From the IMG/VR virus record IMGVR_UViG_2778261122_000007, positions 1-29,245 of that record: 29,245 nt of DNA; one strand, 5' to 3'. Below are positions 1 to 26,909 of the stretch, one piece after another (the first letter of the stretch is position 1; each line of letters opens with the position of its first letter). This stretch comes from a virus. Its lineage: Duplodnaviria; Heunggongvirae; Uroviricota; Caudoviricetes. The position numbers and the translations under genes are program-made. The notes under the pieces are model-generated. The model saw only the letters and a list, made by a program, of their open reading frames with translations. It did not search any database and had not been told where the DNA came from.

Positions 1-567
1 TATCGCGTCCTCAACAATGAATTTTGTGATGCGGTGCCTGGTGCCTCCAGGTGACGTTAACCAGTTAACAATTAACGCCGGATACAGAGAATCCACCCAT
101 GACACTGTTTTTGGTTTTAACTGTTCCGCGTGCGCTCAGCCGCATTCACCGCATCACAAAATTCACTTTAAAAAGGGCGGCAGAGCAGTCACGGAGTAAA
201 ACTGATACCGCCAAACGTCACCAGAAAATTGATAACAGAGGGCGTTGCAGCGGGGTTGTCACTTAAGCGTATGGTCAACCTGACAACCCGGTGTCCTCAA
301 CGGGGAAGGAATAACCCCGCCATACTTACCGTCGCGCCATTTCGCGGAGTGCCACAACCGGAAGCGCACGGTCGAAGAAAATTTAACGACAGACTATCTA
401 TGAACCAGCAACCTCGCCGTGCGCTTTCGCGTTATGCTCTGACTTTTCAGGGAAATATCCTTTCAGTAAACTGTCAGTGCCGGATGCTGACCCGTGTCCG
501 GCGCACGCACTCCACCTCACCCGTGGAGAACTCCTTAATTACCAACCTTAGCTTCGTTGGTTAGCTA

Positions 568-786
568 TTAACGCGGGTATGTAATCATTCTGGCAATGCT
601 TAATGCCGCTGCTTTTTCCAGCCTGGTGATATCCTGCTCCAGAGCGGACAGGTTTTCAGCCTGCTTAGCCCTGGCTTCATTGGCCCATTTCAGATCCTGC
701 GCTGCATTAATTTTCTGGCGCATCCACTCATAAAGTTCATCATCGGTATAGTCTGGCGCGATGATGATGGGTTCTCGTTTCTGCAT
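568..786 (-). CDS. hypothetical small protein (72 aa), early-left operon
   Basis: Intact ORF from the track; AGGAG Shine-Dalgarno immediately upstream of the ATG on the reverse strand (787-800); ordinary codon usage; same orientation as the repressor. No family recognised. Confidence 0.5.
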   Translation of the reverse strand: MQKREPIIIAPDYTDDELYEWMRQKINAAQDLKWANEARAKQAENLSALEQDITRLEKAAALSIARMITYPR

Positions 787-857
787 GTCGGCTCCTTGTG
801 GTTAGCGTTGCCTGCTTTTAACCACGTCAGGCGAGGTGGTATCCTCTGAGGGGGCTG

Positions 858-1214
858 TTACTCGAGAGGAAATTGGTTATGAATACAATCAAGTTTTCTT
901 GCCCAGAATGTGGTGGCGAAGTCTTTGACACATCCTTTAAGCCGCAGGGCTCTGACAGTTTCGCGGGAGCCATCTGCAAAAATTGTGGTCACCTTGTAAC
1001 TGAAGATGAGTCCTCGCAGTTCGATGACGAAATCGTTGACAATATCTTCGGTGCACTCACCAGAGACTTTCTGAAGTAAAGGCGCATACCGCTTAGTTAC
1101 CGCTCTGATAACTCTTACCTGTCCGGCAATGGCGCTGATATCAATATAAAGCGCCATCGCTGTTTCTTTGCTGATCCCTGGACGCCTTCCATTCTGATGT
1201 TTGACTTCGCCCAC
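858..1214 (-). CDS. hypothetical protein (118 aa), possible first gene of a leftward PL-like operon; overlaps and may be mutually exclusive with 879-1079 (+)
   Basis: ORF from the track; GTG start at 1214 preceded by GAGGA; lies downstream of a candidate leftward promoter/operator at 1395-1445; contains several AGA/AGG/GGA codons, which weakens the call. Confidence 0.3.
   Translation of the reverse strand: MGEVKHQNGRRPGISKETAMALYIDISAIAGQVRVIRAVTKRYAPLLQKVSGECTEDIVNDFVIELRGLIFSYKVTTIFADGSRETVRALRLKGCVKDFATTFWARKLDCIHNQFPLE
879..1079 (+). CDS. small zinc-ribbon protein (67 aa; CPECGG ... CKNCGH)
   Basis: ATG at 879 with GAGAGGA Shine-Dalgarno at 864-870; two CxxC pairs about 27 residues apart, typical of a zinc ribbon; clean codon usage. 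Fully overlapped by the antisense ORF 858-1214. Confidence 0.4.
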   Translation: MNTIKFSCPECGGEVFDTSFKPQGSDSFAGAICKNCGHLVTEDESSQFDDEIVDNIFGALTRDFLK

Positions 1215-1394
1215 TGAGAAATCCTCTGTTTCCCCTTAACGCCGGGGTAGCGGAACAAAAACCTGCTGCATAGTTATTAAAGTTGAACCCTGCCGTCATG
1301 TTCTTACGCCTCAGGCTGGCTACTTAACCCCTGACCACTGCCGGGTAACTCGAAGTATTGCCCTGCATTCTGTGGGGCGGGGTGGGTGGCAGGT

Positions 1395-1445
1395 ATATAA
1401 TGTACTTTGCGTTCATTGTTGTAAAGTACTTTTAGTACATTTTGT
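1395..1445. promoter_or_regulatory. candidate OL/PL-like operator-promoter region downstream of the repressor gene
   Basis: AATGTACT at 1399-1406, its inverted copy AGTACATT at 1434-1441 and AAAGTACT at 1423-1430; TATAAT/TATATA at 1394-1400 readable on either strand; the same ATGTACT motif recurs at 1960-1966 and 1984-1990 on the other side of the repressor. Confidence 0.35.
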
Positions 1446-1515: not shown

Positions 1516-1935
1516 TTAAGAGGCTTTTTGTTTTTTCTTTCGTGCTAACTCTTCGTAAATTGCATTGTACTTCTGTTTTTTCTCTTCAAGAGTTTTTAAA
1601 AGTTCATCTGTCTCACTGTCAGGGAGCTCGTCCAGAAGGTCAATGATGATTTTTTGTCTTGGATTTAACTCCTGATAGAAACGTACCTGTCCACTTTCTT
1701 CTGTATCCTCTCCCAAAAGATAGGTTGGTGTTGTTCCTATTAGTGTTGCTAATTCCCTTAATTTCTCCCGGCGAGGAATTGTTTCGCCATTAAACCATTT
1801 GCTAACCGCTTTTGGTGTTAATTTCATTCGACGGGCAATTTCTGCCTGCCTTCCATGTTGTTCATAACCAGCGTTTTCACAGGCTAGCGCAAGCCTACTG
1901 GCGAACTCTTTACGCGCTTTATCTTCATGAACCAT
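1516..1935 (-). CDS. prophage repressor, XRE-family helix-turn-helix (DicA/CI-like)
   Basis: 139 aa; HTH segment (MKLTPKAVSKWFNGETIPRREKLRELATLIGTTPTYLL) followed by an acidic/coiled C-terminal tail, the same architecture as DicA as I recall it; divergent from a Cro-like gene. Confidence 0.85.
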   Translation of the reverse strand: MVHEDKARKEFASRLALACENAGYEQHGRQAEIARRMKLTPKAVSKWFNGETIPRREKLRELATLIGTTPTYLLGEDTEESGQVRFYQELNPRQKIIIDLLDELPDSETDELLKTLEEKKQKYNAIYEELARKKKQKAS

Positions 1936-25463: not shown

Positions 25464-26161
25464 TGCAGGATATACAGCAGGAAACACTGAATGAGTGTAC
25501 AAAAGCGGAGCAATCCGCGCTGGTCGTGCTCTGGGAAGTCGATCTGACAGAAGTCGGCGGAGAGCGTTATTTTTTCTGTAATGAGCAGAACGAAAAAGGT
25601 GAGCCGGTCACCTGGCAGGGGCGACAGTATCAGGCGTACCCCATCCAGGGGAGCGGATTTGAGATGAACGGTAAAGGAGCCAGCGCCAGGCCAACTCTGA
25701 AAGTCTCTAATCTGCACGGCATGGTCACCGGGATGGTGGAAGATTTGCAGAGCTTGGTCGGCGGAACGGTGGTCAGGCGTAAGGTTTACGCCCGTTTTCT
25801 GGATGCGGTGAACTTCGTCAACGGAAACAGCGACGCCGATCCGGAGCAGGAGGTGATCAGCCGCTGGCGCATCGAGCAGTGCAGCGAACTGAGCGCGGTC
25901 AGTGCCTCCTTTGTGCTCTCCACACCGACGGAAACGGACGGCGCTGTTTTTCCGGGACGTATCATGCTGGCCAACACCTGCACCTGGACCTATCGCGGTG
26001 ATGAGTGCGGTTATAGTGGTCCGGCGGTCGCGGATGAATATGACCAGCCAACGTCCGATATCACGAAGGATAAATGCAGCAAATGCCTGAGTGGCTGTAA
26101 GTTCCGCAATAACGTCGATAACTTTGGCGGCTTCCTTTCCATTAACAAACTTTCGCAGTAA
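25463..26161 (+). CDS. L: minor tail protein L
   Basis: 232 aa; strong similarity to lambda L as I recall it, including the C-terminal Cys cluster (CGYSG ... CSKCLSGCKFRNN). Confidence 0.9.
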   Translation: MQDIQQETLNECTKAEQSALVVLWEVDLTEVGGERYFFCNEQNEKGEPVTWQGRQYQAYPIQGSGFEMNGKGASARPTLKVSNLHGMVTGMVEDLQSLVGGTVVRRKVYARFLDAVNFVNGNSDADPEQEVISRWRIEQCSELSAVSASFVLSTPTETDGAVFPGRIMLANTCTWTYRGDECGYSGPAVADEYDQPTSDITKDKCSKCLSGCKFRNNVDNFGGFLSINKLSQ

Positions 26162-26165
26162 TCCC

Positions 26166-26909
26166 ATGACAGAGACAGAATCAGCGATTCTGGCGCACGC
26201 CCGGCGATGTGCGCCAGCGGAGTCGTGCGGCTTCGTGGTGAGAACGCCGGAGGGGGAAAGATATTTTCCCTGTGTGAATATTTCCGGTGAGCCGGAGGAT
26301 TATTTCCGGATGGCTCCGGAGGACTGGCTGCATGCAGAGATGCAGGGTGAGATTGTGGCGCTGGTCCACAGTCACCCCGGTGGTCTGCCCTGGCTGAGTG
26401 AGGCTGACCGGCGGCTGCAGGTGCAGAGTGATTTGCCGTGGTGGCTGGTCTGCCGGGGGGCGATTCATAAGTTCCGCTGTGTGCCGCATCTCACCGGGCG
26501 GCGCTTTGAGCACGGGGTGACGGACTGTTACACGCTGTTCCGGGATGCTTATCATCTGGCGGGGATTGAGATGCCGGATTTTCATCGCGGGGATGACTGG
26601 TGGCGTCACGGTCAGAATCTCTATCTGGATAATCTGGAGGCCACAGGACTGTATCAGGTGCCGTTGTCAGCGGCGCAGCCGGGCGATGTGCTGCTGTGCT
26701 GTTTTGGTTCATCGGTGCCGAATCATGCCGCCATTTACTGTGGTGACGGCGAGCTGCTGCACCATATTCCTGAACAACTGAGCAAACGAGAGAGGTATAC
26801 CGACAAATGGCAGCGACGCACACACTCCCTCTGGCGTCACCGGGCATGGCACGCATCTGCCTTTACGGGGATTTACAACGATTTGGCCGCCGCATCGACC
26901 TTCGTGTAA
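26166..26909 (+). CDS. K: tail assembly protein K (MPN/JAB and NlpC/P60 domains)
   Basis: ATG 26166 within the track ORF 26091-26909; MTETESAILAHARRCAPAESCGFVV... is near-identical to lambda K as I recall it. Confidence 0.9.
   Translation: MTETESAILAHARRCAPAESCGFVVRTPEGERYFPCVNISGEPEDYFRMAPEDWLHAEMQGEIVALVHSHPGGLPWLSEADRRLQVQSDLPWWLVCRGAIHKFRCVPHLTGRRFEHGVTDCYTLFRDAYHLAGIEMPDFHRGDDWWRHGQNLYLDNLEATGLYQVPLSAAQPGDVLLCCFGSSVPNHAAIYCGDGELLHHIPEQLSKRERYTDKWQRRTHSLWRHRAWHASAFTGIYNDLAAASTFV

Follow-up and report, generated by a model that had tools for sequence, protein, structure and literature searches.

An antisense pair of overlapping reading frames in the early-left region of a Qin-type prophage: a zinc-ribbon gene and its candidate partner on the opposite strand

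Introduction

Pairs of genes that overlap in antisense have been described in Escherichia coli O157:H7 (ano/ECs2385 and asa; three overlapping genes, OLGs, PMC9927249) and in Pseudomonas aeruginosa (PMC8850804). Protein coding on both strands is still disputed in bacteria and phages, and most of the proposed cases are young, strain-specific and based on ribosome profiling only. Here we describe a locus of this contested kind at the left end of a 29,245-nucleotide (nt) stretch of viral DNA (IMG/VR record IMGVR_UViG_2778261122_000007; the whole stretch is referred to as the window), where an open reading frame (ORF) for a zinc-ribbon protein of 66 amino acids on the plus strand lies wholly inside an ORF of 118 codons on the minus strand. 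On balance we judge it probable that both ORFs encode functional proteins, which would make the module that carries them a new and unusually well-conserved case of an antisense overlapping gene pair.

The module resembles the described OLGs in several respects. The two frames occupy opposite strands, with the smaller ORF nested in the larger, pipelines for annotation retain one of the two, and the case is built on conserved ORFs and on tests of selection that sort changes by their effect in both frames (NN/NS/SN/SS-type tests, see below). While the known OLGs rest mainly on RNA-seq, Ribo-seq and phenotypes, the case for the module comes from sequence comparison. The embedded ORF of a known OLG is usually young and taxonomically restricted, whereas the ORFs of the module co-occur across prophages of Escherichia, Klebsiella, Citrobacter and Enterobacter with identities as low as about 50%, and it is the embedded plus ORF that is the better-supported and better-conserved gene. 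A literature search by locus tags, accessions and family identifiers found no publication on the locus; PMC9927249 and PMC8850804 are silent on it, and the description of the NCBIfam family NF047912, to which the plus product belongs, mentions no antisense partner and gives a family name without a tested function.

The dicB operon of the K-12 prophage Qin (dicA-ydfA-ydfB-ydfC-dicF-dicB) holds two short genes on the same strand and no antisense ORF in the slot that the module occupies in the window. The restriction-alleviation proteins of the Lar/Ral type are, like the plus product, small CxxC...CxxC proteins encoded in the early region of lambdoid prophages. The likeness to them is far below threshold and no more than a lead (TIGR03655, 15.7 bits against a cut-off of 39.6, E=0.014; PHROG 6422, E=0.0098). 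The cII/oop arrangement of phage lambda is a further parallel: in the relatives L005 and L006 the minus ORF stands just after cro, the place of cII in lambda, and faces a complementary leftward transcript unit. Unlike oop, the antisense partner in the module codes for a protein that is conserved, and it spans two thirds of the gene; a Pfam search found neither a cII nor a helix-turn-helix (HTH) signature in the minus ORF.

The zinc-ribbon gene on the plus strand

The plus ORF is clearly under purifying selection and, judging from its relatives, is almost certainly a bona fide gene. The comparison covered 55 distinct DNA sequences from about ten lineages, viral and metagenome contigs included (E. 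coli-type, L014, L005/6/15, L223, L009/96, the L012 group, L010, L176-8, L179 and L189), and both ORFs co-occur in all 55, whichever of them served as the query. Although the identity of the plus protein falls to about 47-52% across the lineages, its ORF is exactly 66 codons long in all of them, with the same start and stop positions. On the tree of all sequences the plus frame has an omega-like ratio of nonsynonymous to synonymous change of 0.45 (P=5e-13), and of 0.27 in the E. coli-type clade to which the window belongs. In the closest informative pair, the window and L014, the 21 differences fall 4/2/15 on the three plus codon positions and change six amino acids in the plus product against 18 in the minus product. 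The two frames are codon-aligned by coordinate arithmetic (plus positions 1, 2 and 3 face minus positions 3, 2 and 1). The synonymous sites of the minus frame evolve inside the overlap at 0.43 times their rate outside it (P=8e-10).

The sequence-only reading had pointed out two CxxC pairs with zinc-ribbon spacing, and this proved correct. The product carries CPEC at residues 8-11 and CKNC at residues 33-36 (CKNCGH, 33-38), and it passes the threshold of NF047912 (ECs_2282 family putative zinc-binding protein) with 57.3 bits against a cut-off of 37 (E=1e-15), residues 4-59 aligning to model positions 1-56 of 60; it also matches PHROG 4852 (E=1e-9). C8, C11, C33 and C36 are invariant in seven lineage representatives, with the spacing predicted for a zinc ribbon, and the GH after the second pair is conserved; the variant P0002 departs at C33. 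Neither product has a recognisable fold match or a family match that tells its function. Searched against PDB sequences, a profile of the plus family gave nothing below E=0.26, the AlphaFold confidence for the plus product (predicted local distance difference test, pLDDT) is 55, and among the PADLOC defence models the best match of the plus ORF, PDC-M14A, is not significant (E=0.0019, 16.5 bits), while the minus ORF matches none.

The sequences upstream of the plus ORF are conserved as well. A Shine-Dalgarno sequence (SD) of the form AGGA or AGGAGG is kept at the same distance before the ATG in most lineages, and so is a promoter-like motif, TT(A/C)ACC-N16-TGGTAT(C/T)(C/T)T, about 35 nt upstream of the ATG, the conservation of which exceeds that of its flanks; the L005 group and L177 depart from it. 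The motif was read from the alignment, and a generic promoter scan did not list the site. An inverted repeat, GCCTG/CAGGC, lies over the -35 element and spacer of this site (810-832). It is likewise kept in most lineages more strongly than its flanks, and might serve to bind a regulator or form an RNA hairpin immediately past the stop codon of the minus ORF.

That the minus ORF is the only gene and the zinc-ribbon ORF its shadow is hardly credible. Such a reading would account for the nonsense alleles of the plus ORF (E14* in O157:H7, E44* in L150) next to a minus ORF that is never interrupted, for the many gene callers and PGAP runs that pick the minus ORF, and for the higher AlphaFold confidence of the minus product (65 versus 55). 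It is already contradicted by the substitution pattern, namely the wobble bias of the plus frame (omega 0.27-0.45, P down to 5e-13), and further by the invariant length, the four invariant cysteines, the conserved promoter-like site, SD and ATG, and the match to a curated NCBIfam model. In addition, a plus frame this open would arise under selection on the minus frame alone with P~0.01.

The minus frame outside the overlap

A codon-aligned antisense frame is closed solely by TTA, CTA or TCA codons in the facing gene, and the chance that it is open is about 0.07-0.19 for a 64-codon stretch of the plus protein at prophage codon usage. The window itself holds an instructive example. The gene of minor tail protein L (25463-26161, plus strand; Pfam PF05100, E=4e-100) faces a 236-codon ORF (25457-26167, minus strand), which is likewise a fully overlapping, codon-aligned antisense ORF. 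It has no family match and is interrupted by stops in 10 of 69 close relatives; this is a genuine shadow ORF. Given this openness probability and the tail-L shadow in the same window, the pair as seen in one sequence is within the reach of chance, and only the comparative data make it remarkable.

The alternative to be taken most seriously is that only the plus ORF is real and that the minus ORF is its shadow, its conservation mirroring that of the plus protein. We regard this as unlikely, though far from negligible. It is in keeping with the 7-19% chance of an open antisense frame in a single sequence and with the tail-L shadow, which is open in 59 of the 69 close relatives. It also agrees with the codon usage. 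The sequence-only reading had noted clean codon usage in the plus ORF and more rare Arg and Gly codons in the minus ORF, and indeed rare Arg, Gly, Ile and Leu codons make up 3% of the former and 10-11% of the latter; the AGA and GGA codons of the minus ORF are simply the serine codons TCT and TCC of the plus ORF read on the other strand, and are forced by them. Finally, no Pfam or NCBIfam family matches the minus ORF above threshold. The one family that it matches is PHROG 21318 (E=3.9e-67, residues 20-118 aligned with profile positions 1-99 of 99), and since that score fits near-identical members, the match does not independently attest a protein family.

The 26 codons at the start of the conserved minus ORF lie outside the plus ORF (1080-1157). 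Of the six frames here, the minus frame alone stays open throughout the lineages. The substitution events are distributed 114:50:65 over minus codon positions 3:2:1, with an omega-like ratio of 0.50-0.53 (P=6e-6), and the one indel among the lineages (in L176-178) is 3 nt long and in-frame. Homology between lineages falls from 0.60 to the random level of 0.29 exactly at the minus start (about 1157), and most lineages outside E. coli, among them L005, L006, L009, L010 and L179, have a good SD and an ATG at this start despite unrelated upstream DNA. A shadow of the zinc-ribbon gene leaves all of this unexplained: the periodicity, the in-frame indel, the end of homology at the start codon and the recurrence of SD and ATG in unrelated DNA.

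Across the sample the minus ORF is uninterrupted apart from L224, where a frameshift breaks both frames; this copy was excluded. The minus ORF points the same way as the early operon around it in both settings in which it occurs, after cI/PL and after cro. The AlphaFold model of the 118-residue product is a helix-helix-hairpin-helix with pLDDT 72-80 over residues 30-110 (65 overall) and lends weak support to a real minus protein. In Citrobacter freundii L007 and L008 (2495-3019, minus strand) and in Enterobacter L012 (2594-2974, minus strand) unrelated sequence at the N-terminus lengthens the minus ORF upstream to 174 or 126 codons; on account of these extensions the family spans 93 to 174 codons and shares the module-encoded part only.

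Selection inside the overlap

Within the overlap a change can be synonymous (S) or nonsynonymous (N) in either frame, the plus frame being named first. Per-site event rates are 5.72 for SS, 3.28 for SN, 1.93 for NS and 1.35 for NN. The ratios for the plus frame are 0.34 (NS/SS) and 0.41 (NN/SN), those for the minus frame 0.57 (SN/SS) and 0.70 (NN/NS), and the four classes fit a multiplicative model with omega of about 0.35-0.4 on the plus frame and about 0.6-0.7 on the minus frame. For the minus frame inside the overlap a naive dN/dS (0.91) says nothing, since the synonymous sites of that frame are first positions of the plus frame. The synonymous sites of the plus frame are themselves constrained, at 0.68 times the synonymous rate outside the overlap (P=0.0017).

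Doubly synonymous and stop-creating events were assessed against a null model of mutation plus codon usage that was calibrated on the tail-L shadow ORF as a negative control (69 sequences, 793 events). In the control the null predicts 34.9 doubly synonymous events where 34 were observed, and 12.7 stop-creating events where there were 8. In the module, 14 doubly synonymous events were observed versus 5.2 expected under this calibrated null, a 2.7-fold excess (P~8e-4), and real stops in the minus frame number zero over 382 overlap events, versus 3.5-5.5 expected. In favour of selection on the plus frame, 12 of the events synonymous in the minus frame were synonymous in the plus frame as well, versus 4.0 expected (P=0.0003). 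The manner in which the frame is kept is also telling. In the TCN and CCN codons for Ser and Pro of the plus ORF, 8 of 12 third-base changes are transversions between G and T, which keep Arg in the minus frame (AGA/CGA, AGG/CGG), while TCA and CTA are confined to codon 2 of the plus ORF, where they form the minus stop. The doubly synonymous excess, the Arg-preserving toggling between G and T and the lack of minus stops over 382 events are again left unexplained if the minus ORF is a shadow.

Selection could also act on the translation of the minus frame rather than on its product, the frame being kept open against Rho-dependent polarity or against pairing with the plus transcript, with only the short N-terminal part mattering, either for initiation or as a peptide. 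This we consider quite improbable. In its favour, stops are avoided while amino-acid constraint on the minus frame in the overlap is weak (omega about 0.6-0.7), the minus ORF always lies within the early operon, co-directional with it and ahead of other genes, and the start region (SD, ATG and the first 26 codons) is the best-supported part. What it fails to account for is that specific Arg positions of the minus product are kept through synonymous changes in the plus frame, and that the fold predicted by AlphaFold is a compact helix-helix-hairpin-helix, its pLDDT being 72-80 over the part that the overlap encodes. If this translated-but-not-for-protein reading is counted in, it is rather probable, on the comparative evidence, that the minus ORF is a gene maintained by selection in the module family.

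The sequence-only reading had held that only one of the two ORFs was likely to be real and that the choice between them changes the reading of the early-left operon. The selection on the plus frame, the signature of the minus frame in its 26 separate codons, the uninterrupted minus ORF and the constrained synonymous sites of the plus frame argue against the first statement; the second need not follow, as both ORFs can stand. The test that it had put forward, codon-position bias across homologous prophages, proved decisive and gave a clear bias in the plus frame and a bias in the minus frame as well, the latter not significant in the window's own clade.

The window's own clade and points against a dual-coding pair

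Several observations weigh against two functional proteins, the first of which concern the clade of the window itself. In the E. coli-type sequences the minus frame outside the overlap has an omega of 0.67 that is not significant (P=0.14), its omega inside the overlap is 1.35, as selection on the plus frame alone predicts, and the events (19/11/53) follow that same pattern, in agreement with a shadow. Codon periodicity is lacking in the GTG-1214 extension (13:12:12), and the SD before ATG 1157 is poor in this clade. The minus ORF may be relaxing in the lineage of the window, and there the plus ORF might be the sole real gene.

Other points concern the tests. Those for the minus frame in the overlap are moderate, with P~1e-3 to 3e-2 each. 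A conditional BLOSUM test was dropped, a phantom control frame having given the same upward shift. A simulation with uniform mutation (P<=0.0007) was discounted: for the tail-L control it predicted 33 stop-creating events against 8 seen and thereby overstated stop avoidance about 4-fold, and the codon-usage-aware null took its place. Event counts come from parsimony on a small neighbour-joining tree of mosaic, possibly recombining sequences, and part of the sample was found through the minus ORF; the conclusion stands in the 24 sequences found via the plus ORF or DNA.

The last point concerns the plus ORF. A nonsense allele, E14* (GAA to TAA, window 918), is common in prophages of O157:H7 and other E. 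coli that produce Shiga toxin (STEC), and it was seen in L186, L187, L172, L169, L174 and L221, which renders the plus ORF dispensable in O157:H7 and its relatives; it changes the minus product only from F to L. Strain SS52 has AAA (Lys) at this codon. Nonsense alleles of the plus ORF are limited to some E. coli, the other being E44* in L150 (GAG to TAG), which leaves the minus product unchanged (CTC to CTA, Leu). In L187 and L188, both O157:H7, a 1-nt deletion at about window 1205-1210 shifts the frame of the GTG-1214 extension, so that these can make the 99-codon minus form from ATG 1157 only.

These alleles have consequences for annotation. In RefSeq the PGAP pipeline names the plus ORF an ECs_2282 family putative zinc-binding protein in many genomes, and elsewhere, STEC genomes included, the 99-codon minus ORF is a hypothetical protein (WP_001240336.1, WP_096037934.1). 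All records checked annotate one ORF of the two, and the annotation moves to the minus ORF where E14* is present; which strand is annotated apparently depends on a single nonsense allele.

Relatives and distribution of the module

Protein searches found relatives of both products in Escherichia, Citrobacter, Klebsiella and Enterobacter, and a profile search added more distant relatives of the minus ORF. In the phage collection tblastn recovered near-identical E. coli phages only. A scan of genome contigs with the plus alignment gave just two weak and irrelevant matches, as the module is strain-specific prophage DNA that is missing from species representatives; among complete E. coli genomes, 937 of 5426 carry it. 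Two metagenome sequences with 35% identity, L227 and L228, have a short CxxC ORF before a ribosomal-protein-L5-like gene and were not accepted as family members. The module is probably a small mobile unit of about 360 bp (window ~799-1157).

Anatomy and genomic setting

At the left end of the window lies the immunity and early-left region of an E. coli prophage, lambdoid and of the Qin/DicB type (Table 1). The positions and the full antisense overlap of the pair (879-1079 within 858-1214) are as first noted, both ORFs have a plausible SD (GAGAGGA and AGAGGA), and the placement of the minus ORF as the first gene of a leftward PL-like operon holds: the promoter-like site and the operator-like repeats that enclose it are located between the gene of a DicA-like repressor and the minus ORF. 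The repeats are found again at 1960-1998, beside the rightward promoter region. On the plus strand the repeat pair makes a 10-bp hairpin followed by TTTTAGT (1402-1429), which could be a terminator of the plus ORF transcript before its antisense entry into the repressor gene.

Table 1. Features of the module and its surroundings in the window
Feature	Position	Strand	Details
DicF RNA	175-226	-	Rfam DicF, 76.7 bits
ydfC, next gene of the leftward operon	568-786	-	PHROG 1744; annotated ydfC; followed by dicF RNA
Inverted repeat GCCTG/CAGGC	810-814 / 828-832		N13; over -35 and spacer of the plus promoter-like site
Promoter-like site of plus ORF	818-845	+	-35 TTAACC 818-823, 16 nt, TGg-TATCCT 837-845 (extended -10)
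SD of plus ORF, GAGAGGA	864-870	+	8 nt before ATG 879
Plus ORF, zinc ribbon	879-1079	+	ATG 879 (upstream TTG 873), stop 1077-1079; 66 codons plus stop
Minus ORF, full form	858-1214	-	GTG 1214, stop 858-860; 118 codons
Minus ORF, conserved core	858-1157	-	internal ATG 1157; 99 codons
Minus ORF, N-terminal 26 codons outside plus ORF	1080-1157	-	
Minus ORF, 5' extension, E. coli-clade-specific	1158-1214	-	19 codons from GTG 1214
SD of minus ORF, AGAGGA (complement)	1222-1227	-	7 nt before GTG 1214
Leftward PL-like promoter, TTTACA-17-CATTAT	1425-1397	-	promoter-like by sequence scan
Operator-like repeats	1398-1417, 1422-1441		enclose the leftward promoter-like site
DicA-like HTH repressor gene	1516-1935	-	family searches
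cro-like gene, YdaT-family gene	from 2015 on	+	

The slot between the repressor gene with its PL-like promoter and ydfC holds ydfA and ydfB in K-12 Qin and the ORF pair in the window. From ydfC onward the two are 97% identical, and the leader up to the SD is common to both, so that the minus ORF has the same SD as the ydfA leader of K-12 Qin. The module itself has no similarity to ydfA/ydfB: with blastn at word size 7, only the leader (1256-1229) and the sequence from ydfC onward match, and a Pfam search gave no match to DUF1391 (YdfA). The shared leader is a block of 28 nt (1229-1256, minus strand), 96% identical to the K-12 Qin leader upstream of ydfA, and bears a small GC hairpin, CCCC (1232-1235)...GGGG (1244-1247); the recombination joint of the two operon variants lies right at the SD. 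In several E. coli-type relatives (L180-L184) a toxin-antitoxin pair (ParE/PaaA2 or HigB with an HTH protein) stands between the repressor gene and the module, and in L184 and L185 a gene of the Rha/ASH family and dicB follow the module in place of ydfC. Just downstream of dicF (23-163, minus strand) the window matches the Rfam sRNA family STnc100 below threshold (38.8 bits, with the gathering score at 47).

Regulatory logic and implications

If both ORFs are genes, as we favour, the plus strand would carry an autonomous gene for a 66-residue zinc-ribbon protein, equipped with a conserved promoter-like site, an SD and an ATG of its own and opposing the early operon, and the minus strand a gene of 93-118 codons that would come first among the cistrons behind the PL-like promoter, in the place of ydfA-ydfB of K-12 Qin. 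Translation of the latter would begin at position 1157, where the start is conserved, or in this clade possibly at GTG 1214, and run through the complement of the zinc-ribbon gene. Both ORFs would be expressed as proteins, and their expression is predicted to be mutually antagonistic, since the two mRNAs converge and are complementary throughout. Production of the zinc-ribbon mRNA would take place under repression of the early operon, and this mRNA would be overrun or paired once PL fires. Taken to its end, this suggests a dual-coding switch that yields the zinc-ribbon protein under repression and the minus protein upon firing of the early operon, with the complementarity of the mRNAs enforcing exclusivity; we put this forward as a speculative and, in its full form, unlikely model.

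Each of the two ORFs is already in the public databases, never both in one record among those checked, and pan-genome and orthology tables probably divide this one locus into two unrelated 'genes'. The module is old enough for comparison across genera, and its alignment offers both natural and designable mutations of one frame that are silent in the other, which makes it a clean test case for coding on both strands. If the dual-coding switch were true, the two products might share one process, for example as antagonists guarding the toxic dicF/dicB operon or the decision between lysis and lysogeny, and the locus would be a protein-coding counterpart of antisense control of the cII/oop type.

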